A stretch of 64,000 nucleotides of DNA from Candidatus Bathyarchaeia archaeon (GCA_038883775.1 JAVZLM010000005.1:96001-160000), one strand, 5' to 3'; positions 1,914 to 10,268 are shown, counted from the stretch's first letter. The notes: a model not told the origin generated them from the sequence alone. Program-made: numbers and translations.

Positions 1914-2732
1914 ATGAAGCGGGAAGAGATTAAAGTCTGCGTTTTAAGGGTAGGCGGAACAAACTGCGATGCAGAAACAAAACGGGCTTTTGAAGAGTTA
2001 GGCGTTCAAGCAGAGGTCGTACATGCAAATGAGCTGGTTAAACGCAGAAACCTTTTGGAATATCATGTTCTGGTTTTTCCAGGGGGTTTCTCTTATGGGG
2101 ATTATGTGCGGGCTGGCGCCATATGGGCGAAGTGGATAATGGCAAAATTGGGCAAGGAGCTTAAAGCCTTCGTAGACGAAAACCGCTTAATCCTTGGTAT
2201 TTGTAATGGCTTTCAAGTGCTTGTTGAGGCTGGTTTTCTTCCGGGATTTGATGGAATAAGCCCATATCCAGAAGCGGTTTTGGCAACCAATTTTCCACCA
2301 GGATATAATTGCCGTTGGATTTACATTAAGCACGAAAATAAGGGAAAATGTGCATTTACTTGGAACATTCCACATGAAAAAGTTTTGCGGATTCCCGTTG
2401 CCCATTCAGAGGGCAGATTTATGTTTGCAAAAGAAAAGGAAAAAGAGTTTCTGGAAAGACTTTACGAAAATGACCAGCTGGTCTTTCGCTATTGTGATAA
2501 AAGTGGCGAATATGCTGATGGACGTTTTCCAACAAACCCAAACGGTTCTTTCCATGATATAGCTGGATTATGCAACCTAGAAGGGACTATTTTTGGTTTG
2601 ATGCCGCATCCAGAAAGAGCCTTTTATTGGTGGCAACAGCCAGACTGGACAAGACAAAAGCAAATGCCCCAATACGGCGATGGAAAACTAATTTTCGAAA
2701 GCTTAATTGAATATTTAACGAAGAAGTTTTAA
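1914..2732 (+). CDS. purQ: FGAM synthase glutaminase subunit PurQ
   Basis: GTNCD, PGGFSYGDY, GICNGFQ and MPHPER motifs. Confidence 0.97.
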   Translation: MKREEIKVCVLRVGGTNCDAETKRAFEELGVQAEVVHANELVKRRNLLEYHVLVFPGGFSYGDYVRAGAIWAKWIMAKLGKELKAFVDENRLILGICNGFQVLVEAGFLPGFDGISPYPEAVLATNFPPGYNCRWIYIKHENKGKCAFTWNIPHEKVLRIPVAHSEGRFMFAKEKEKEFLERLYENDQLVFRYCDKSGEYADGRFPTNPNGSFHDIAGLCNLEGTIFGLMPHPERAFYWWQQPDWTRQKQMPQYGDGKLIFESLIEYLTKKF

Positions 2733-3629
2733 ATCCTCCACATGCGGAAGCCCTGTTCTGGCACCCATTTTCATTATACACTTTGAAGCTACAAAATTGC
2801 CAAGTCTTCCGCATTCATACAAACTTTTACCATTAATAAGACCATATAGGAAACCTGCACAGAAAGCATCACCAGCGCCCGTTGTATCTACAACTTTTAC
2901 GTTAAAGCGGTTTATTTGGTGACTTTCCCGTCCATCAGTAACATAACAGCCCTTATTGCCAAGTTTTACGGCAACTATTTTAACGCCTTTTTCAAGCAGA
3001 AACTTTGCGCCTTTCTTGTAATCTTTAACTTTGGTTAGGAGTTCAAGTTCCCTTTGATTTGGCATCAAAACAAAAGCACGCCTTATTATGGGCTCTAATG
3101 CAGCTAATCCTTTTCTGGCGTATAATTCGCCTGGGTCAAGGCTAACCTTAACATTTTCTGGCAACATCTCAACAAGCCTTAGCTGGGTTTGGAAGGATTT
3201 TTCTCCAACAAAAGAGGTTAAATGCAAAAATTGCGCGTTGAAGGCGTAATCCTTGTTTATTTCGTTAAACTCTATTGCGTCGTTCACACCTGGGTCCACA
3301 TATAATGCTCTTTCGCCATTTTGGTCTACGAAACCCATAACTGTCCCGCTTCTGCCATCTTTTGCGTAGATTATGCCCTTTGTGTCGACGCCTTCCCTTC
3401 GAAAATCTTCAATTAGCATTTTTCCTTCCCTATCGTTGGCTACCTTTCCTATAAAACCCACTTTGCAGCCGAGCCTTGCCAAGCCCACAGTGGTGTTTGC
3501 TGCCGAGCCTCCGCACCATTCTTCACAGTTTATAATGAAGCCTTCTTCTTCAGCCCCAGCTATTTTGTTCACTCTGAACAGCTTATCTACATTCAAGGCA
3601 CCGAATCCTACTACGTCAAAGGTGCTCAT
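2715..3629 (-). CDS. PfkB/ribokinase-family carbohydrate or nucleoside kinase
   Basis: [15 protein letters not shown] and DTTGAGDAF PfkB signatures; start overlaps the stop of the ftr-like gene by 4 bp. Confidence 0.93.
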
Positions 3630-4537
3630 GAAAACAGCTCACGCAAATAAATCTTATAATCGCCAAGTTTTCCGTCATAATTTCCAGCGGAAACCTTCAC
3701 CACGCCATCCACTTCTAATACTGCTTCTATGCCAGCCCGCATAGCCCTTTTTATAGCTTCAAGCGAAACGCCATTAATCACGATTTCTGGAATATAATTG
3801 ACGCCTTCTGGAACCTTTGATTCCTTGTCTAACTTCTTTTTTAGGGATGGGCAGTAGGGATGGTTTGTTGTCGGTCCAATCCATGGAAAACTTGTTTCAG
3901 GCTTGGAACCAGCACTGCAAACGTCAAAAGGCGTTATTACACCATCAATTTTGTGTATTGCCTCTAAGGCTTTTTCTCCAGCCTTTTTTAGGGCTTCTTT
4001 TGTTTTGCACATGACCCAAAAGTTTGCACCCATAACGCCACGAGCATAGCCTAGATAGCGTTCGATAATGAAGTCTGGAACCATTATGGGAACAACGATA
4101 ACCTCACGCCCAAAGCGTTTTTCAACCCACTCATAGCCATCTCCACAGTGTCCAACACGCTCCATCATGTCAATTTTACCCTCAGCATTTGACGTTGCAT
4201 CAAAAACCGCCGTAAAAGGCTTAACAAGAATGTCTTGACGAATTCGATAAGAAAGCTCAACTTCAAACTTCTTTAGGGAATCTGAAAAGGGCTTTTTAGG
4301 GTCTATTCCACCCCAAAACTGGAGCAAAGCACCTTCACGCTTGTCTGGAGTTTCCCTTTCGCTTAACCATTTTTCTATTCCACCTTCAACTCTACCAATG
4401 ACTATGGACGGCGTTGCCGTGGCATCTTCAGCAGCCCTTCGCAATGTTTCTCCATCATCAGCCGTAACAATTATTCTGGAGAAGATTCCCTCGAAAGCCT
4501 CGGCGTAAGTGTCTTCTACAAGTTCTTTACCAATCAA
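3626..4537 (-). CDS. ftr: Formylmethanofuran:tetrahydromethanopterin formyltransferase-like protein (Ftr paralog)
   Basis: EDTYAEAF N-terminus, [35 protein letters not shown] and [10 protein letters not shown] match Ftr family motifs. Confidence 0.88.
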
Positions 4538-4569
4538 CTTTTAATCTCCTAAAGCGGTCGTCTAGCGGA

Positions 4570-5547
4570 TTATTTTATTTTGGCGATTTCAGTTATTAAA
4601 TCTTCAACTCTAATATACGCCAAAGATAACTGGAAACGGGCTTGTACCAGAGGCGTTTGATAAATATGATAAAGTGTGTTGTTAACGATTAGGTTTGTGG
4701 AGCCTGATGGCAGTTCGCTGTAGTTTTCGTCTTGGAAAAAGTTCTTTTTTGCAATATCCCAGTATTTGAGGTCGCCTGAAGAGTATAGGTCATAGCCTGT
4801 TCCATTCCATATTCCTAGCATCATGTACCATTTTGAATCCAAATAGAACAGTGTTGGGTTTTCAAGGATTCCAGTAACAGCTATTTTTGTGTAATTCCAT
4901 TGCATTCCAAGGCTTTTGGCAGTTGCCAAGTGCACTCCATATTTTGCGGCTGATATCAGCATGTAATAGGTGTCTTCCAATTTCAGTATGTAAGGGTCCC
5001 AGCCTAGATTCGGTGCGAGGGGTTCTGGCATATCTTCCACTGTTAAATAGCCATGGTCAGTGAAAGTTGAGGGGTTTTTAATGTCTATTCCAACAGCTAA
5101 TCCAAGTCTTGAAAAGTTAATGTCTTTTTCAACGATGTTTTTCCAGTCGCTATAGTAAAGGTAGAATTTTCCATCGTCTGGGTTGTATATGCAGTAAGGC
5201 GCTATTTTCCCATCCATTTGTATGGGCGTGAAGCCAACAAAATTGTAGGTATGCAAATCCCTGGTCCTTATGACGCCGGTAAGCCATCTGCCGTCTGTTT
5301 TATTAACTGACAATACAATGTAATAGAAGCCTTCGTTATCTCTGAAAGCTGTGTGGTTTGGGTACCGCACAAACTCTGGGTCTTTCACGCTGTGCATGTT
5401 CGGTATGTTTATGGTTATGGCGCCACAGTAAACCCACTTTGTTGGCTGTTTTCTAATTATTAGGTAAAATGCTGTGAGAGTCGCTGCGAGAGCAATGATT
5501 ATGATGGCTGCCACAATAATCCATTCACGTTTACCCGACGAGACCAA
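4570..5547 (-). CDS. Membrane-anchored glycoside hydrolase-like protein (five-bladed beta-propeller, GH43/GH32/GH130-like)
   Basis: N-terminal TM helix; repeated KDP / APY / WDPY / ENPT blade motifs, DGKFYLYYS, SGDLKYW. Confidence 0.6.
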   Translation of the reverse strand: MVSSGKREWIIVAAIIIIALAATLTAFYLIIRKQPTKWVYCGAITINIPNMHSVKDPEFVRYPNHTAFRDNEGFYYIVLSVNKTDGRWLTGVIRTRDLHTYNFVGFTPIQMDGKIAPYCIYNPDDGKFYLYYSDWKNIVEKDINFSRLGLAVGIDIKNPSTFTDHGYLTVEDMPEPLAPNLGWDPYILKLEDTYYMLISAAKYGVHLATAKSLGMQWNYTKIAVTGILENPTLFYLDSKWYMMLGIWNGTGYDLYSSGDLKYWDIAKKNFFQDENYSELPSGSTNLIVNNTLYHIYQTPLVQARFQLSLAYIRVEDLITEIAKIK

Positions 5548-5550
5548 CTT

Positions 5551-6633
5551 TTATCCAAGCCTTCCTATGGCCTCGCCTCTTACCGTTTTACGAAAGGTTG
5601 TGCTTTCCCTTATCAGCCTTTCCATATTATCAGCTTTCACAATCTCAACTGAGGGCAATTTGCCACCATGCATGTTGAAAAACATGGTTTTGAGTTTGGC
5701 GTTTACATCGGCGCTTCCAAGCGTGGAAGTACTCCAATTTTCCACAAGCTCAATAACTCCTCTTTTGCCGTATTTGCAGAAAACCTCCGCCAGCACCGCA
5801 GTTACAAGTGCATTGGCAGATATGACGGCTATTTCCGCCTCTTTTACAGCATATTCGTTGCCGTTGAAGGATATGGTTAAGCCCCCAGCATGGCGAACTG
5901 TTTTGAAGGCTTCCATGTCCGTTATGCTGTCGCCAACATAAATAACATCCGCCAGTTCTGCACTAACTTTTTTAGCTGCATCTTTTACTGCTTCGGCTTT
6001 TTCGCTTCCTCCAACTGGATTGACTTCAGAGAAAATTTTGCCAATCTCCATTTTAGCGATAACTTCCCAGAAAATTTCGTCTAGCCGACCAATTAGTTCT
6101 TGGTCTCTTTTAGAAAAGTCGCTTAGAGCTTTTGCATCGGGAGGAATCTCGATTAAAGGCATCTTAACAATTTCCTCTGCCAATTCTTTCAGTTCGCTTC
6201 TTTCCTTCTCCGTTATGGAGTATTTGTCGAGGCATAGCCTTGTGGAGTAGGTGTTTTCGTATGGAAAATTCAGGGCTTGACATAAGGCTTCTATGTAATG
6301 CTGATAGCTCGTGCTAACAATAAAGGCATTGGTTATATTTCTTATATAAGACAGCATGTCCTTCACATTGGCAATTAAAAGTAGGCTCTTGGCAGAAAAA
6401 GTTCGCATTTTAGCGTCGGTAACATCATAAGCCTTTAAGAAGGGCAAAATAAGCTTTAAGGTGTCTCCAGCCTTATAGTTTGGTCTTTTTAGGATTTCTG
6501 CCAAAACATCATCATATTTGCTTATAACCGTGAAGAGTTTGCCTCCGTTTGGAACATAGTGAAATGTTATTTCGAAGGCATTATCATTTTTTGAGATTGG
6601 CCCTTCACAGTCTGATATGAAAACTCTTTTCAC
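5551..6633 (-). CDS. HAD-superfamily predicted phosphatase (COG4030 / EhaR-like)
   Basis: FISDCEGP (motif I variant), VSTSY, conserved K in GSEKA, YVGDSITD; 4-bp overlap with the purD stop. Confidence 0.8.
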   Translation of the reverse strand: MKRVFISDCEGPISKNDNAFEITFHYVPNGGKLFTVISKYDDVLAEILKRPNYKAGDTLKLILPFLKAYDVTDAKMRTFSAKSLLLIANVKDMLSYIRNITNAFIVSTSYQHYIEALCQALNFPYENTYSTRLCLDKYSITEKERSELKELAEEIVKMPLIEIPPDAKALSDFSKRDQELIGRLDEIFWEVIAKMEIGKIFSEVNPVGGSEKAEAVKDAAKKVSAELADVIYVGDSITDMEAFKTVRHAGGLTISFNGNEYAVKEAEIAVISANALVTAVLAEVFCKYGKRGVIELVENWSTSTLGSADVNAKLKTMFFNMHGGKLPSVEIVKADNMERLIRESTTFRKTVRGEAIGRLG

Positions 6634-8036
6634 TTTCGAAGCCTCAACTTCTCCATATGCCTAACGCTTTTTCCTATATGCTTTTTAGAGGCTATGTCTT
6701 TTCTATGCCACAAAGCTCCGCCTTTAATGGCTTTTATGCCTTCCAAAGAAATTTTTCTAGCAGTTTCTATGTCGTCGCCTATGCCCACAACGCCCACGGC
6801 TCTTGATTTAAGGGCGTAAGTTTCGTTGTTGCGGAATTCCATGGAGGCGGGATAGATGCGGATTTTTTCGCCATGCTTTTTGGATAGTTCGTAAGCCTTT
6901 GTTAGGTCGACTGGTGTGCCAATTTCATTTTTGTCGACAAGTTTTGGAAAAGCGTCTATGTATCCGCCGTAGTTTGGCGGAACCTTGTAGGTGACAACAG
7001 TTGCAGCATTTTCTAATTCAATCTTTGTCAAATTTCCTTCCAAAATTTTGAAGCACACGTCCACAAAATCATCTTTTAAAACCGGTAGAATGTTGATTAT
7101 TTCTGGGTCGCCTGGTCTGCTGTTGTTTTCAAGAATTTTCGGTTCCTTGCCCGTGTGCATAAAAGCCACATAGAACGGAATACCTCTTAGGCTGTCGCCA
7201 TCTTTAACCTCCCACTTTTCAAAAATTCGCCTAACAATTTCAACTTCCTTAGCCCTATCAGCATGAGTCATAAAAGGCAAAACATCGCCAACATCCTTAT
7301 AAGAACCCATACCGCCAGTGTTAGGACCCTTGTCATCGTCGAAGGCTCGCTTATAATCCCTCGTTTCTGGCAACGGCACCAAGTGTTTGCCGTCACAGAA
7401 GGCTTGAAAACTTGATTCTTCTCCCTCAATTTTCTCTTCAATTATTACTGCACCATGCTGAAAATTTGCCATAAAATGCTCAAACAATTGTTCTCGCGTG
7501 GTAAAGTGGTCTCCCCATACGCCCACGCCTTTTCCAGCTGCTGGTTGGTCTGGTTTAACCACAGCCCTATTTTCAAGCTCGTCCAACCATTCGTAAACAG
7601 CTTTTTTCACTTCTCGGGTTTTGTAATTTTTTGGGTTGAAAATTTTGAAGCGAGGGTTTACTTCTGGCGCAATTTTTTGGAATAGTAGGCGCTGCTGCAC
7701 TTTGCTTGCTTCTATGGCATATTCCTTTTTTGGGCAGATGATGGGTATGCCAGTGTGCTTTTCTACAAGGTCGCGGACGCCATCAATTATGGGTTTTTCT
7801 GGTCCAACAATGCCAAAGTCAATTTCGTCCCTATTGTTTTCTGCGAATTTGCAAATTTCCTCCACGTTTAAGTCTGGAATAACCATGTGCTTTGCTGCCT
7901 TTTTGACGTTAAAGGGATTGCGTTGTTTATCAACAACAAAAACCTTCACCTCATAATTTGTGCTTCGTGTGAAAGCGTCTATCATGGCAGATTCTCTTGC
8001 ACCGTAAGAAACAACGAGGATGCCAACTTTCTCCAT
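6630..8036 (-). CDS. purD: Phosphoribosylamine--glycine ligase
   Basis: GARE, VGPE, AAGKGV, IEEKIEGEE, DYKRAFDDDKGPNTGGMG, RPGDPE. Confidence 0.93.
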   Translation of the reverse strand: MEKVGILVVSYGARESAMIDAFTRSTNYEVKVFVVDKQRNPFNVKKAAKHMVIPDLNVEEICKFAENNRDEIDFGIVGPEKPIIDGVRDLVEKHTGIPIICPKKEYAIEASKVQQRLLFQKIAPEVNPRFKIFNPKNYKTREVKKAVYEWLDELENRAVVKPDQPAAGKGVGVWGDHFTTREQLFEHFMANFQHGAVIIEEKIEGEESSFQAFCDGKHLVPLPETRDYKRAFDDDKGPNTGGMGSYKDVGDVLPFMTHADRAKEVEIVRRIFEKWEVKDGDSLRGIPFYVAFMHTGKEPKILENNSRPGDPEIINILPVLKDDFVDVCFKILEGNLTKIELENAATVVTYKVPPNYGGYIDAFPKLVDKNEIGTPVDLTKAYELSKKHGEKIRIYPASMEFRNNETYALKSRAVGVVGIGDDIETARKISLEGIKAIKGGALWHRKDIASKKHIGKSVRHMEKLRLRK

Positions 8037-8092
8037 TTCATGCTCCCGCTAGTTTAACGAAAATGAGTTTGAAGCCTATTTTATTTTTGGCT

Positions 8093-9580
8093 TTAGGCTT
8101 TTTGGATGGCTTCAGATATCTCGTAAAGCCTTCCCTGTTCCTCGTAGCCTTCAAGGAATTTCTTCTTCATCTCATCCGCAATTTTTTGCGCTAATGGTGT
8201 GGGATATTTGCCCGTTACACATGCCAAACAAAGTTGGTCACGACGGAACCCTGTGGCTTTTACGAAACCTTCTATTGACTGGTAGCAGACGGCATCAGCG
8301 CCTATTATTTTTGCTATTTCTTCCGCCGTATGCCTTGAGCCTATTAATTGCCCATAAGTTGCCATGTCTATTCCATAGAAGCATGGTCCAATGATGCGGG
8401 GAAAAGTTACAAACATGTAAACTTTCTTTGCGCCCATTCTGCGAAGTTTCTCTATAACAATTTTTGTTGTGTCGCCGCGCACTATGCTATCTTCTGTCAC
8501 TATGACACGTTTTCCTTTAACTTTAGAGGCTATAATGTTAATTTTTCTGTCTATGGTTGCATAACGCTCCCTATTTAGCAGTATAAAGGCTCTTTCTGTT
8601 ACAAAACGATGCCTCCGTGAAGCCCTCTCCCACTTTAGCCCAGACTCTTCGTGAACTCCGAAGGCTGCATCATCGCCCGTTTCTGGAATGGATATGACTA
8701 TGTCTGCGTTTTTGGCTATTTCTGGATTTTCTCTAACAAGGTTTCTTCCAAACTCTTCTCGAACTTCGTAAACATATTTGTTATCAAAGCATGAGTCGGG
8801 TCTAGCGAAATATGCAAATTCGAAAGCGCAGAAAGCCCTGCATCCGCCATTCACCAATTTTTCTCTTTCAAGTCCATTTTTTGAAACTGTTACGAGTTCG
8901 CCTGGCTCAATTTCAAAAGCTTTCTTAAAGCCGTTTATGTCTAAACCTACGGTTTCTGAAGAGAAAGCGTAAGTTGTCTTGTCTTCGCTTTGTCCAGCGC
9001 ATAATGGTCTAATGCCATTTTGGTCTTTGAAGGCGAAGAACTCACCGTTTTTTGTGATGCAAGCTACAGAAAAGGCGCCTTCAATTTCTTCCATGCACGT
9101 TTTTACTGCTGATGTAACATCCTTATTCTTCACCAACTCAATTAAAAGCTTGTGAGAAATGAGGTCTGCATCGCATTCGTAAGAAAATTTTGGAAAATAT
9201 TTGCTTATTTCCTTTTTAAGTTGAAATATGTTAACAACATTACCATTAAAAGAAACAGCCACAGCAAACCCATTTTTTAAAGCGGTAACTGGTTGAGTGC
9301 CCTTTATAAGGGATTTTTCGTCGCATTTTCCAGAAGTCGTATATCTAACGTTTGCTATGCCCACACTTCCAGGTAAACGTCCAAACCATTCTTGGATGGC
9401 GCTTGTCTTTATTTTTGGTATTAAGTCTAAGCTTCGGTGAACATGAAATTTTCCATGATCAAATGTTAAGAAGCCATGAGATTGGTGTCCTCTGTGGTTT
9501 TGAGCGCGCATTCCCCAGTAGATGTATGGGAATATGGGCTGTTCTTCAAAGTTTATTGCTCCAAATACGCCACAACCCAT
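8093..9580 (-). CDS. purF: Amidophosphoribosyltransferase (divergent)
   Basis: CGVFG near the N-terminus, CAFEFAYFARPDS, EDSIVRGDT PRPP loop, PCFYGID, CLAC Fe-S cysteines. Confidence 0.9.
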   Translation of the reverse strand: MGCGVFGAINFEEQPIFPYIYWGMRAQNHRGHQSHGFLTFDHGKFHVHRSLDLIPKIKTSAIQEWFGRLPGSVGIANVRYTTSGKCDEKSLIKGTQPVTALKNGFAVAVSFNGNVVNIFQLKKEISKYFPKFSYECDADLISHKLLIELVKNKDVTSAVKTCMEEIEGAFSVACITKNGEFFAFKDQNGIRPLCAGQSEDKTTYAFSSETVGLDINGFKKAFEIEPGELVTVSKNGLEREKLVNGGCRAFCAFEFAYFARPDSCFDNKYVYEVREEFGRNLVRENPEIAKNADIVISIPETGDDAAFGVHEESGLKWERASRRHRFVTERAFILLNRERYATIDRKINIIASKVKGKRVIVTEDSIVRGDTTKIVIEKLRRMGAKKVYMFVTFPRIIGPCFYGIDMATYGQLIGSRHTAEEIAKIIGADAVCYQSIEGFVKATGFRRDQLCLACVTGKYPTPLAQKIADEMKKKFLEGYEEQGRLYEISEAIQKA

Positions 9581-9692: not shown

Positions 9693-10127
9693 TTATTTTA
9701 CCGTGCTTGAGGTTATTGTTAGCTCTGCTCCTGAAATGACGTGAATCCACCAGCTCAGCGCAGTAAAAGAGTCATTGTAATAGACTATTAAGCGTGCTAT
9801 GGAGTTTATTGGAGCATCGCATGGAACGGTGCCATTCCATGTTAAAGTTTTTGTCTTGCATGGTTTAAGGGTTAAAGTTTGCGGCGTTCCACTCCAAGTC
9901 CAAGTTTCGCCTTCAAAGGCTATGTTAACAGACCATGTTCCTTCGCATTTTCCAGTATTCTTGAAAACTATTTTCACGGTGAAAGCCTCACATGGCGTTT
10001 TGTCAACAACGCCGCCGTCTTCACATGCAAAACAAAGCCATTGCGTTTCTTCTGAACGTATAGTTGAAAGGCTAAGTGTAAGAAGCAAAGCAGCTATAGC
10101 AAAAGATAGAAGATAATATCTTTTCAT
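9693..10127 (-). CDS. Secreted protein with Ig-like (CARDB-like) beta-sandwich
   Basis: Signal peptide MKRYYLLSFAIAALLLTLSLS from an internal ATG at 10127 preceded by GGAG; pattern VKIVFKNTG...LTLKP.KTKTLTW. Confidence 0.55.
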   Translation of the reverse strand: MKRYYLLSFAIAALLLTLSLSTIRSEETQWLCFACEDGGVVDKTPCEAFTVKIVFKNTGKCEGTWSVNIAFEGETWTWSGTPQTLTLKPCKTKTLTWNGTVPCDAPINSIARLIVYYNDSFTALSWWIHVISGAELTITSSTVK

Positions 10128-10268
10128 GTTTCTCTCCTTTCCTCCACAATAATAATTTGCAAGCTCCTCTTTATCCATTCTGTAATATACCTCTATAAAA
10201 TAAAACAAGAAAAATCCTAGAGAGGGTAGGCGCTATTGCAATGGAAAAGCGCCAAAAATATGAAGAAT

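Follow-up and report, generated by a model that had tools for sequence, protein, structure and literature searches.

The described systems closest to the gene trio reported here include the formylmethanofuran:H4MPT formyltransferase (Ftr), the purine enzymes PurN and PurT, and the genes that close the eha operon. In the sections of PMC6926001 cited here, the methanofuran amine attacks the formyl carbon while a protonated glutamate (Glu252 in FhcD) stabilises the oxyanion, and passing the group on from formyl-H4MPT to this amine of the furan costs only +4.4 kJ/mol. The absence of PurN and PurT from several H4MPT-using archaea, mentioned in an earlier note on this DNA, is already in print (parts of PMC3261824 and PMC9012536). 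In the part of PMC3261824 cited, Brown et al. write that formyl-H4MPT is not considered to donate formyl groups, although it was the N10 form that they meant. Where they treat the eha operon, Kaster et al. read the two genes at issue as hydrogenase subunits, with the role left unassigned, and the naming of Eha subunits there rests on co-transcription (excerpts of PMC3087415).

Here we describe a cluster in a stretch of 64,000 nucleotides (the window) from a Bathyarchaeia metagenome-assembled genome of 1.69 Mb and 91.4% completeness. A HAD-fold protein, an Ftr paralog (FtrP) and a PfkB-family kinase are encoded among purine genes. The explanation that we favour, and hold to be likely from genome comparison, is that this trio replaces PurN/PurT, with FtrP as the formyl transferase. 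The literature library searched yielded nothing in print on a purine role for the trio; if the explanation is true, the trio would be the step-3 purine enzyme that, since 2011, has counted as missing from many archaea.

Organization of the locus

According to the ORF calls in the window, purF, purD, the HAD gene, a GH43-like gene, ftrP and pfkB follow one another on the minus strand, and purL–purQ lie opposite in convergent orientation (Table 1). The co-orientation, the 4-bp overlaps at purD/HAD (6630-6633) and ftr/pfkB (3626-3629) and the convergence on purL–purQ, all described in the earlier note, are borne out by the ORF coordinates, and the convergent PfkB and purQ ORFs share 18 bp. Window proteins were scored against Pfam and NCBIfam models: PurF matches TIGR01134 over its full length with 312.6 bits (cut-off 350, not reached), and PurD reaches 276.2 bits with TIGR00877 (cut-off 288). 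The profile scan found neither purN nor purT in the window, again as first described, and PF00551 is matched by none of the cluster proteins.

Table 1. Genes of the purine cluster, with positions counted from the first nucleotide of the window
Feature	Position	Strand	Remarks
purF, amidophosphoribosyltransferase (step 1)	8093-9580	-	leads co-oriented cluster; TIGR01134 + GATase_7
purD, GAR synthetase (step 2), divergent type	6630-8036	-	GARS_N/A/C domains; TIGR00877
HAD-fold protein, AF1437/EhaR family, putative phosphatase	5551-6633	-	weak HAD matches
GH43-like beta-propeller gene	4570-5547	-	PF04616, below cut-off
FtrP, paralog of formylmethanofuran:H4MPT formyltransferase, EhaS type; proposed step-3 formyl transferase	3626-4537	-	PF01913 + PF02741
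PfkB-family kinase, ribokinase-like, EhaT type	2715-3629	-	PF00294
purQ, FGAM synthase glutaminase subunit (step 4)	1914-2732	+	NF002252 319 bits, above cut-off
purL, FGAM synthase subunit (step 4)	1-1911, truncated by window start	+	TIGR01736 576.6 bits, above cut-off

The GH43-like gene is a strain-specific insert outside the conserved module. Its PF04616 score of 27.6 bits lies below the cut-off of 32.2, its product has only 16 relatives, the named ones being Bathyarchaeia, and tblastn found the gene in none of the related loci fetched. Contigs of three runs (X1, X6 and X7) join position 4516 to position 5551 and skip the gene. The original gene list stands for the HAD, ftr and pfkB genes within the pur cluster, with one correction: the GH gene is no part of the conserved cluster.

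Searching 80 fetched loci with the window proteins by tblastn revealed purF-purD-HAD-FtrP-PfkB opposite purQ-purL in about 40 Bathyarchaeia loci, with purF kept upstream of purD in related loci. A single locus of the Asgard archaeon Borrarchaeum carries purF-purD-HAD-FtrP-PfkB-purL-purQ on one strand, and the trio is joined in one operon across three phyla. In the same order, HAD-FtrP-PfkB closes the Methanobrevibacter-type eha operon (EhaR-S-T). Orthologs lie at the 3' end of the eha operon in the relatives L057 and L051; in L057, where the EhaR-EhaS-EhaT arrangement named in the earlier note can be seen, they come after two polyferredoxins and genes resembling NuoH, NuoB and NuoD. The Eha names come from the cited part of PMC3087415, and the equation of EhaR with the HAD protein was made here by gene order, not by that paper. 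The neighbours in the window are pur genes, and no hydrogenase gene occurs among the ten window proteins scanned. In ANME-1-type loci, FtrP adjoins FBPase, PFK and aldolase-like genes, and pur genes are absent there.

The position within the eha operon in Methanobacteria (excerpts of PMC3087415), the sugar-phosphate neighbours without pur genes in ANME-1-type loci and the Ftr-like catalytic core of FtrP would all suit a trio unrelated to step 3. FtrP would then be an additional Ftr isoenzyme, or a C1/cofactor protein linked to Eha (methanofuran/H4MPT synthesis or salvage), and its anti-correlation with PurN would do no more than separate folate from H4MPT users. By contrast, the pur-operon setting recurs in Asgard and a canonical Ftr is already present in FtrP genomes; with the distributions given below, this makes an unrelated trio improbable.

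FtrP is an Ftr paralog outside the canonical clade

FtrP has the two lobes of Ftr (PF01913, 148.3 bits; PF02741, 195.4 bits; NF002554, 346 bits) and aligns end to end with the solved chains 1M5S, 1M5H and 1FTR (174-180 bits). The catalytic glutamate, E251, does not vary among 21 FtrP sequences, nor in a set of 16 FtrP and canonical sequences; counted on the alignment, its equivalent in M. kandleri Ftr is Glu245. The SGSK and AGNYGGKLG loops of Ftr are also kept. W75, R100, C131, W174, C177 and G221-P222 are specific to the FtrP clade in 8/8 sequences, as are P250, which adjoins the catalytic glutamate, and the loss of two residues after F204; position 100, Arg in all eight, is Gly in 6/8 canonical Ftr sequences.

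The window copy is not the only ftr of its host, a point raised in the earlier note. The second Ftr is canonical (TIGR03119, 388.3 bits), while FtrP, 38% identical to it, falls below the cut-off of this equivalog model (229.7 against 292.6; the L057 copy scores 195.5). In an unrooted tree from a quick search, the canonical Ftr clade of 47 rows has an SH-aLRT of 100, and every FtrP-type row lies outside it, so that the window copy does not group with canonical Ftr. Profile HMM A3 separates the two, with FtrP at 363 bits or more and canonical Ftr at 290 or less; the score thresholds for FtrP and PfkB were set once the bimodal score lists had been seen.

The HAD and PfkB partners

The HAD protein has weak HAD-model matches only (PF12710, 29.4 bits), and its profile (A4) matches PDB 1Y8A, 'hypothetical protein AF1437', with 195.6 bits. 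In motif I (DCEGP) the nucleophile D8 is invariant, and the +2 position is an invariant Glu as opposed to the general-acid Asp of DxDx(T/V). Also invariant in A4 are S107-T108-S109 (motif II), K212 (motif III) and G234-D235-S236-I237-T238-D239 (motif IV, GDSITD). A DxE motif I occurs in the active enolase-phosphatase E1. We regard the HAD protein as a putative phosphatase.

The kinase matches PF00294 with 191.3 bits and stays under every NCBIfam equivalog cut-off (ribokinase TIGR02152, 173.3 against 299.65), its top NCBIfam scores being with ribokinase and ribose-1-phosphate kinase models. Its alignment contains GGSAANT, NQRE and DTTGAGDA, the PfkB-family motifs GG, NxxE and DTxGAGD, and an N-terminal GALNVD with the N/D pair of the ribokinase-type diol motif. 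G40, G41, D248, T250, G251, A252, G253 and D254 are invariant. A family-specific HMM gives the window kinase 492 bits and the other PfkB paralogs of the host at most 92. With orthologs defined by at least 250 bits with this type of profile (A5), the PfkB of the trio forms its own orthologous group, which tracks FtrP.

In Halobacteriota, HAD occurs in 54/58 FtrP-positive against 6/73 FtrP-negative genomes, and PfkB orthologs in 58/58 against 8/73. Four genomes (G198, G221, G140, G162) retain all three genes though dispersed. Judged by these distributions, HAD and PfkB travel with FtrP whether dispersed or not, and the trio appears to be a unit.

Exceptions bear on how the unit would work. HAD and PfkB are adjacent, with PurN and without FtrP, in four Halobacteriota (G152, G174, G183, G191), from which it can be argued that the pair can work without FtrP; four FtrP-positive Halobacteriota genomes have no HAD match (G139, G150, G161, G172), and the pair is often distant from FtrP. 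These cases favour a route in which FtrP formylates GAR with its 5'-phosphate on, and HAD and PfkB would be linked but separate, serving for instance ribose 5-phosphate/PRPP supply or salvage of dephosphorylated purine intermediates, with no obligatory detour. The best-scoring kinase models point the same way, as does R100, which could bind the phosphate, and formyl transfer is near equilibrium (cited sections of PMC6926001), so that PurL would pull. However, both partners track FtrP tightly and share its operon in three phyla, and if the kinase were a general ribose kinase, its near-complete absence from PurN/PurT genomes would be surprising. We consider this direct route rather unlikely.

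FtrP and PurN/PurT are near-perfectly exclusive

Neither purN nor purT, for which the earlier note had proposed a search of the full genome, was matched in the 91.4%-complete host genome: profile search gave zero matches to PF00551 (PurN), and the best PurT match is a generic ATP-grasp protein on contig C25 with 36-37 bits against a cut-off of 502 (TIGR01142). PurP is found. FwdA, Mch and the canonical Ftr are also encoded by the host, which should therefore have both formyl donors.

PurH has no match in the host genome. It is a folate enzyme, as is PurN, so that an anti-correlation with PurN by itself does not tell one formylation step from the other; FtrP might formylate AICAR (step 9) instead of GAR. 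Against this, PurP, the formate-dependent AICAR formyltransferase, occurs in the host and in 51/53 FtrP-positive Bathyarchaeia, which argues that the role of FtrP is not the AICAR step. In addition, FtrP excludes PurT, a GAR enzyme, and lies near purD, opposite purL–purQ. An AICAR role is extremely improbable.

FtrP and PurN/PurT are near-perfectly exclusive of each other. Among 131 Bathyarchaeia, 51 have FtrP only, 60 a PurN/PurT-like gene only, 2 both and 18 none. The purD-positive genomes (n = 111) divide into 48, 57, 2 and 4, and those lacking purD (n = 20) into 3, 3, 0 and 14. The 131 Halobacteriota comprise 54 with FtrP only, 70 with PurN/PurT only, 4 with both and 3 with neither. Methanobacteria have FtrP in 111/111 genomes, PF00551 in 0/111 and purT in 0/10; PurN occurs in 0/5, and PurT above cut-off in 0/5, of five named FtrP lineages. 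Profiled as the earlier note proposed, FtrP anti-correlates with PurN/PurT in two phyla; in another phylum, which gave no PF00551 match, every genome counted has it. FtrP and a PurN/PurT-like gene occur together in six genomes (G006 and G120, Bathyarchaeia; G142, G153, G164 and G207, Halobacteriota). The genomes counted are related and non-independent, so Fisher p-values of this complementarity overstate the case. Many PF00551 matches in Bathyarchaeia are atypical (~275-aa frames, 60-90 bits, partial model match) and may not be PurN, and every PurT-like match there is below the equivalog cut-off.

The slot beside purD is filled by PurN, PurT or HAD-FtrP-PfkB, an in-place displacement: in 47/53 genomes the distance from purD to FtrP is at most 3.5 kb, while PF00551 is found within 0.7 kb of purD in 16/51 and a PurT-like gene within 0.7 kb in 4/11. 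FtrP is absent from 10/11 PurT-like Bathyarchaeia and from all 14 strong PurT genomes in Halobacteriota, so the pattern is not merely folate versus H4MPT. This weighs against a trio unrelated to step 3, as PurT-type genomes also have canonical Ftr and PurP; so do the shared slot of sister lineages and the way FtrP follows purD, 14/20 purD-negative genomes having none of FtrP, PurN or PurT.

PurD itself scores low in FtrP-positive Bathyarchaeia (220-276 bits, cut-off 288; 300-500 in most PurN/PurT genomes), and purD directly adjoins the module. FtrP could then formylate free glycine, and the divergent PurD would ligate N-formylglycine to phosphoribosylamine, giving FGAR directly. Yet low-scoring PurD also occurs with PF00551 neighbours (G007, G015, G037, G032), a standard PurD (397 bits) stands beside FtrP in G030, and HAD and PfkB would be left without a role. 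We hold this route to be very unlikely.

Proposed route of GAR formylation

Taken together, it is quite probable that the trio supplies the formylation of GAR to FGAR, purine step 3, as a non-orthologous stand-in for PurN/PurT in archaea with H4MPT and methanofuran. The purine role of the genes is read from genome comparison; we infer the formyl transfer by FtrP, its donor and its acceptor. N5-formyl-H4MPT or formyl-methanofuran would be the donor to FtrP, and the primary amine of glycinamide would replace the aminomethyl group of methanofuran as acceptor. The reading of FtrP as an H4MPT- or methanofuran-dependent GAR transformylase, put forward in the earlier note, is supported by these comparisons; all refuting conditions of that note that sequence data can address turned out in its favour.

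In the riboside detour, HAD would take off the 5'-phosphate of GAR, FtrP would formylate the neutral riboside and PfkB would put the phosphate back, yielding FGAR at the price of one ATP. The genome-wide co-occurrence of HAD and PfkB with FtrP and the diol motif of the kinase make the detour consistent with the data, and no other reading would put the three activities to use as economically. Against it, removing and restoring the phosphate looks wasteful, since PurL, driven by ATP, draws FGAR onward in any case. The detour is plausible, and in exactly this form we put it forward tentatively, as somewhat less than an even chance.

Separately, the six genomes with both systems, HAD-PfkB without FtrP, the FtrP genomes that lack a HAD match, the sugar-phosphate loci of ANME-1 type, the eha setting and the view of Brown et al. 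on formyl-H4MPT count against the favoured explanation as a whole.

Comparison with known systems

FtrP resembles Ftr (1FTR, 1M5H, 1M5S; FhcD 6S6Y) in its two-lobe architecture, catalytic glutamate and SGSK and AGNYGGKLG loops. It differs in its sub-equivalog score, its place outside the canonical clade, its clade-specific residues and its setting, which is purine and not C1 metabolism. The HAD protein shares its family, the DxEGP motif I and the GDSIxD motif IV with AF1437 of Archaeoglobus fulgidus (1Y8A, a structural-genomics 'hypothetical protein'). The kinase is like ribokinase and nucleoside kinases (3RY7, 1RKD) in PF00294, GG/NxxE/DTxGAGD and the N-terminal N/D pair; unlike them, it is sub-equivalog and belongs to a separate orthologous group (at least 250 bits, A5) that follows FtrP.

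The trio has the order of, and is orthologous to, EhaR/S/T of the Methanothermobacter/Methanobrevibacter eha operon, whereas in the window it is embedded in pur genes, and the scan of ten proteins there turned up no hydrogenase gene. It has in common with PurN/PurT the slot beside purD, a mutually exclusive distribution and, as proposed, the net conversion of GAR to FGAR, and its detour would cost one ATP, as does PurT. By comparison, it has no sequence or fold relation to PurN/PurT (PF00551 and purT unmatched), comprises three proteins instead of one, and would draw on formyl-H4MPT or formyl-methanofuran, not on formyl-folate or formate. FtrP, a methanogen-type formyl-transfer copy placed among pur genes with its two partners, probably carries out a purine step.

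Organization of the purine locus and the vacant step in its genome

The Ftr paralog of the window (FtrP, EhaS type) lies within a block of six co-oriented minus-strand ORFs at 2715–9580, convergent with purL and purQ on the plus strand. ORF coordinates and Pfam and NCBIfam matches bear out the order purF–purD–HAD–[GH]–ftr–pfkB facing purL–purQ that the earlier note had described, and the 4-bp overlaps at purD/HAD and ftr/pfkB follow from the coordinates. As a list of conserved cluster members, that order stands for purF, purD, HAD, ftr and pfkB, but not for the GH43-like gene, which is missing from related loci. The nearest homologs of the window proteins carry the names Candidatus Bathyarchaeia or Bathycorpusculaceae.

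Genes of the purine locus with the matches that identify them
Gene	Coordinates	Strand	Basis
purL	1–1911, truncated by the window start	+	Pfam/NCBIfam
purQ	1914–2732	+	Pfam/NCBIfam
PfkB kinase	2715–3629	−	Pfam/NCBIfam
Ftr homolog (FtrP)	3626–4537	−	Pfam/NCBIfam
GH43-like gene	4570–5547	−	Pfam/NCBIfam
HAD-fold gene	5551–6633	−	Pfam/NCBIfam
purD	6630–8036	−	Pfam/NCBIfam; 276 bits, below the equivalog cut-off of 288
purF	8093–9580	−	Pfam/NCBIfam; 313 bits, below the equivalog cut-off of 350
171-aa ORF between purF and aspS	9693–10208	−	No Pfam/NCBIfam match; recurs in one related locus only (L058, 45% identity)

A fourth place in the module for the GH43-like gene was weighed and dismissed: it occurs in no related locus, and contigs from three sequencing runs skip it. 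It is of the five-bladed propeller type, is inserted between the HAD gene and FtrP in this strain only, and belongs to a family with 16 members among 5.8 billion proteins, the named members all being from Bathyarchaeia. Contigs from the hot-spring runs X1, X6 and X7 connect 4516 to 5551 without the gene, with 20 other letters, and read depth across 4681–5850 is approximately zero in runs X6, X7 and X2. None of the listed holders of window DNA is an RNA record; two runs labelled metatranscriptomic among them are marked "probably DNA" and entered as contigs only.

The genome containing the window (G000, with the window at C5:96001–160000) comprises 1.69 Mb in 28 contigs and is 91.4% complete and 5.1% contaminated. 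A search of this whole genome (91% complete) found no Formyl_trans_N domain and no PurT, for which the top match reached 36–37 bits against a cut-off of 502, and the lack of purN and purT first seen in the window thus extends to the genome at that completeness. A generic ATP-grasp protein on contig C25, tried as a hidden PurT, was rejected, as it scores 37 bits with the purT model and higher with the CPSase and RimK models. PurH has no match in the same 91% complete genome and PurP is present, so that AICAR formylation (step 9) is covered and GAR formylation (step 3, GAR to FGAR) is the sole unfilled step. Since FwdA (818 bits) and Mch (418 bits) were both found, formyl-methanofuran and formyl-H4MPT should both be available.

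FtrP within the Ftr family

Two Ftr genes are present in the genome. The copy on contig C2, which adjoins an F420 ligase gene, is canonical (TIGR03119, 388 bits against a cut-off of 292.6) and represents the second ftr for which the earlier note had suggested a search; FtrP scores 229.7 bits against the same cut-off and is 38% identical to the C2 protein. A quick IQ-TREE reconstruction covered 103 proteins of the Ftr family, made up of both copies from this genome, 54 full-length representatives of clusters and ORFs of named loci. In it, 47 canonical rows form one clade (SH-aLRT 100, stem 0.45), including the C2 copy and the canonical copies of an Alkanophaga, an Archaeoglobaceae and a Borrarchaeum genome. 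Every FtrP-type row of this unrooted, short-search tree, the window copy among them, falls outside that clade. The FtrP-type rows come from Bathyarchaeia, Methanobrevibacter, Methanophagales (ANME-1), Alkanophaga, Archaeoglobaceae, Hadarchaeota, Pyrohabitans, Hydrothermarchaeota, Promethearchaeota, Odinarchaeota and Borrarchaeum. Because equivalog score and clade placement both fail, FtrP is set outside canonical Ftr. Its sequence puts it in the Ftr fold family and in neither the PurN nor the PurT family, and it would act like a GAR formyltransferase. A third, long-branched Ftr-like group (stem 1.17; tree rows P0187, P0189, P0190, P0217, P0221 and P0239) adjoins the Promethearchaeota FtrP rows.

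FtrP can be aligned over its whole length to the solved Ftr structures, and its E251, counted on the 1FTR alignment, is the counterpart of Glu245 in M. kandleri Ftr; this Glu in Ftr and FhcD is described as protonated and oxyanion-stabilising (PMC6926001). E251, the SGSK loop and the AGNYGGKLG loop are common to the eight FtrP and eight canonical sequences compared. By comparison, W75, R100, C131, W174, C177, G221–P222, P250 and a two-residue deletion after F204 distinguish all eight FtrP sequences from the canonical ones. R100 takes a position occupied by glycine in six of the eight canonical sequences, C131 one occupied by phenylalanine in all eight, and P250 adjoins the catalytic Glu. These features suggest that FtrP has retained Ftr chemistry in a remodelled pocket.

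FtrP of four complete Halobacteriota genomes (G198, G221, G140 and G162; loci L099, L101, L103 and L105) is 75–77% identical to the window copy, and FtrP of L036, a locus labelled Methanomicrobia, nests within the Bathyarchaeia FtrP clade, which suggests that the gene moved between phyla. Single in-frame TAA codons occur within otherwise full-length matches to FtrP in G038 and G245 and to PfkB in G168, and could be sequencing errors, pseudogenes or recoding.

FtrP alternates with PurN and PurT

FtrP was called with A3, an HMM of 21 FtrP sequences on which FtrP scores at least 363 bits (partial frames counted) and canonical Ftr at most 290, the threshold having been chosen after this score gap was visible. 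The counts cover Bathyarchaeia (131 genomes at least 85% complete, the identical set in each search), Halobacteriota and Methanobacteria; Methanococcales, Methanopyrus, Thermococcales and Asgard archaea lie outside the sample. Related genomes are not independent, and Fisher values are given no weight past the raw counts.

Among the 131 Bathyarchaeia, FtrP is present in 53, PF00551 (the PurN-type domain) in 51 and purD in 111, and 11 have full-length PurT-like matches (175–303 bits, all below the equivalog cut-off). The 131 Halobacteriota include 58 genomes with FtrP, 64 with PF00551 and 14 with a strong PurT-like protein, the named FtrP loci including Archaeoglobaceae, Methanophagales/ANME-1 and Alkanophaga. 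All 111 Methanobacteria carry FtrP and none carries PF00551; purT was found in none of the 10 genomes of this group tested. Five FtrP genomes from five named lineages also gave no PurN and no PurT above the cut-off. The anti-correlation with purN and purT that the earlier note had proposed profiling is thus seen in Bathyarchaeia and Halobacteriota, with co-occurrence in two and four genomes, respectively, and FtrP is universal in the sampled Methanobacteria.

Co-occurrence of FtrP with PurN or PurT (PurT-like in Bathyarchaeia)
Genome set	Genomes	FtrP only	PurN/PurT only	Both	None
Bathyarchaeia, all	131	51	60	2 (G006, G120)	18
Bathyarchaeia with purD	111	48	57	2	4
Bathyarchaeia without purD	20	3	3	0	14
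Halobacteriota	131	54	70	4 (G142, G153, G164, G207)	3

This pattern is not a mere contrast between folate and H4MPT, because FtrP is lacking in folate-independent PurT-type genomes (10 of 11 Bathyarchaeia, all 11 with PurP, and 14 of 14 Halobacteriota with a strong PurT-like protein) and because FtrP tracks the presence of purD in the Bathyarchaeia sample. The three solutions alternate inside single Bathyarchaeia families; family f11 has FtrP in two genomes, a PurT-like protein in six and PF00551 in one. In 47 of the 53 FtrP-containing Bathyarchaeia no more than 3.5 kb separates FtrP from purD, the usual gap of about 1.14 kb being the length of the HAD gene, and the PF00551 and PurT-like genes lie within 0.7 kb of purD in 16 of 51 and 4 of 11 Bathyarchaeia genomes, respectively. 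These distances point to one slot that sister lineages fill in three unrelated ways. PurP, profiled in Bathyarchaeia, accompanies FtrP in 51 of 53 genomes, which argues against a role for FtrP at the AICAR step.

The chief exceptions to mutual exclusion are G142, G153 and G164, which combine FtrP of a divergent subgroup (328–329 aa, scoring about 388 bits with A3) with canonical Ftr, HAD, PfkB and a well-matching PurN. In G207 (1.0 Mb), HAD, PfkB and FtrP are contiguous in that order, PurN is present and canonical Ftr has no match. Many Bathyarchaeia, including family f18, encode atypical PF00551 proteins (frames of about 270–340 aa, 42–90 bits, partial domain match) that may be a divergent PurN type; in G007, G015, G037 and G032 the gene directly adjoins purD. 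PurD of FtrP-containing Bathyarchaeia is low-scoring (220–276 bits, compared with 300–500 in most PurN/PurT genomes), with G030 and G078 as exceptions.

Partner proteins and gene context

The HAD protein falls into one family with PDB 1Y8A, "hypothetical protein AF1437" from A. fulgidus (195.6 bits). Its motif I reads D-x-E-G-P, with an invariant nucleophile Asp and a Glu at the second-Asp position of HAD phosphatases, and motifs II–IV are intact; an active enzyme, enolase-phosphatase E1, carries a comparable DxE motif. The closest solved relatives of the kinase are ribokinases, and it carries the GG, NxxE and DTTGAGDA motifs together with N13 and D15, both invariant, a type of pair that presumably grips the ribose cis-diol in ribokinases and nucleoside kinases. 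On the kinase profile A5 the window kinase scores 492 bits and the other PfkB paralogs of its genome at most 92, and orthologs were called at 250 bits or above.

In Halobacteriota, the HAD family is found in 54 of 58 genomes with FtrP compared with 6 of 73 without it, and PfkB orthologs in 57 of 58, plus a partial copy beside HAD in the 58th, compared with 8 of 73. The complete genomes G168, G146, G205, G238 and G181, and by coordinates also G197, carry an adjacent HAD–PfkB pair distant from FtrP, and in G198, G221, G140 and G162 the three genes are scattered and all retained. This co-occurrence, which persists even when the genes are scattered, indicates that the trio of HAD (EhaR type), FtrP and PfkB (EhaT type) behaves as one functional unit. 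In G139, G150, G161 and G172, FtrP is accompanied by a lower-scoring kinase and HAD has no match. G206 and G214 carry HAD and PfkB with none of FtrP, PurN and PurT, a pattern that may reflect assembly gaps.

Gene context was surveyed by tblastn of the window proteins against 80 loci fetched from GTDB species genomes. The order purF–purD–HAD–FtrP–PfkB facing purQ–purL recurs in about 40 Bathyarchaeia loci, and Candidatus Borrarchaeum yapensis (Asgard) has purF–purD–HAD–FtrP–PfkB–purL–purQ on one strand, with FtrP just 43% identical. HAD–FtrP–PfkB also occurs in two Methanobrevibacter-type loci. In L057, genes resembling NuoH, NuoB and NuoD/the NiFe large subunit and two polyferredoxin genes precede the trio and another polyferredoxin gene follows, a layout equal to that of the eha operon. 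The EhaR–EhaS–EhaT trio, named in the earlier note as closing this operon, is confirmed by that layout, with EhaR equated to the HAD protein from the L057 gene order. L057 itself (CAVDAS010000017.1) is filed as 'Bacteroidaceae bacterium', groups with Methanobrevibacter and seems to be a contig of archaeal origin misplaced in a bacterial MAG. ANME-1-type loci (L052, L063, L069 and L050) place FtrP beside class V FBPase, PFK, class II aldolase-like and TPR genes, with the HAD gene 4–5 kb from FtrP and no pur genes; these clusters link FtrP and HAD to sugar-phosphate genes, not to pur genes.

A putative route from GAR to FGAR

Taken together, sequence and distribution make it probable that the trio performs step 3. 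Each in-silico test run supported the earlier proposal that the Ftr paralog is a candidate GAR transformylase, which would move the formyl group of formyl-H4MPT or formyl-methanofuran onto the glycinamide moiety. FtrP might formylate GAR itself, with HAD and PfkB doing a linked job; such a direct route is unlikely in our judgement, and fits the four genomes that have adjacent HAD–PfkB and PurN without FtrP (G152, G174, G183 and G191). Because a phosphatase-like protein and a ribose-type kinase always accompany FtrP, the simplest account is a detour through the riboside, which we infer tentatively in its HAD–FtrP–PfkB form.

In this riboside detour, HAD would convert GAR to glycinamide riboside, a neutral compound that could mimic the aminomethylfuran head of methanofuran. 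FtrP would then yield formylglycinamide riboside, drawing the formyl group from the methanogenic or Wood–Ljungdahl C1 pool, and PfkB would use ATP to produce FGAR. The cost would be one ATP, equal to that of PurT; if the kinase were specific to the formylated riboside, the route would become irreversible. Eha has an anaplerotic role, and in Methanobacteria the position in the eha operon may couple the drain of formyl groups into purines to the hydrogenase replenishing the pool of formyl-methanofuran. It is conceivable, though less likely than not, that a large part of Archaea obtains purine C8 through this bypass from the C1 pool, eha-coupled in Methanobacteria; the reading would cover 111 of 111 Methanobacteria, 58 of 131 Halobacteriota, 53 of 131 sampled Bathyarchaeia and some Asgard archaea.

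Comparison with known systems

Brown et al. 2011 found no GAR formyltransferase in seven archaea with otherwise intact pathways, namely two Archaeoglobi, M. kandleri and four labelled Methanomicrobiales, of which the named species are Methanobacteriales; one of the seven, Methanothermobacter, is a proven purine prototroph (PMC3261824). Chadwick et al. 2022 reported that neither enzyme is present in Archaeoglobales, Methanobacteriales or ANME-1 and invoked an "as yet unidentified enzyme" (PMC9012536). Precisely these groups with the published gap carry FtrP here. The full-text literature searched, with most subscription journals and supplements outside it, yielded no paper in which archaeal purine synthesis is connected with an Ftr paralog, with EhaR/S/T or with a glycinamide-riboside route, and a prior report of the trio's purine role outside that literature is possible.

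Three concrete genes that fit the gap can now be named, one of them with a solved structure (1Y8A), and their distribution matches the gap in three phyla. With three defined proteins and the methanogen genetics already available, a gap named for fifteen years can be put to the test. If the assignment is true, it would explain EhaR, EhaS and EhaT, correct how thousands of genes now called "Ftr" or "ribokinase" are annotated, and close a hole in models of metabolism for methanogens, ANME, Bathyarchaeia and Asgard archaea.

Canonical Ftr transfers formyl between N5 of H4MPT and the primary aminomethyl group of methanofuran, near equilibrium (+4.4 kJ/mol towards the furan amine; PMC6926001). By comparison, GAR has its primary aminomethyl group on a carboxamide that neighbours a five-membered ring containing oxygen. 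By analogy, we infer that formyl transfer to GAR should be about as easy as to methanofuran, with ATP-driven PurL pulling the reaction forward. H4MPT- or methanofuran-bound formate would then feed biosynthesis directly, and, beside the folate-dependent PurN and the formate- and ATP-dependent PurT, the trio would be a third kind of GAR formyltransferase, unrelated to the other two and perhaps following a new route of three steps.
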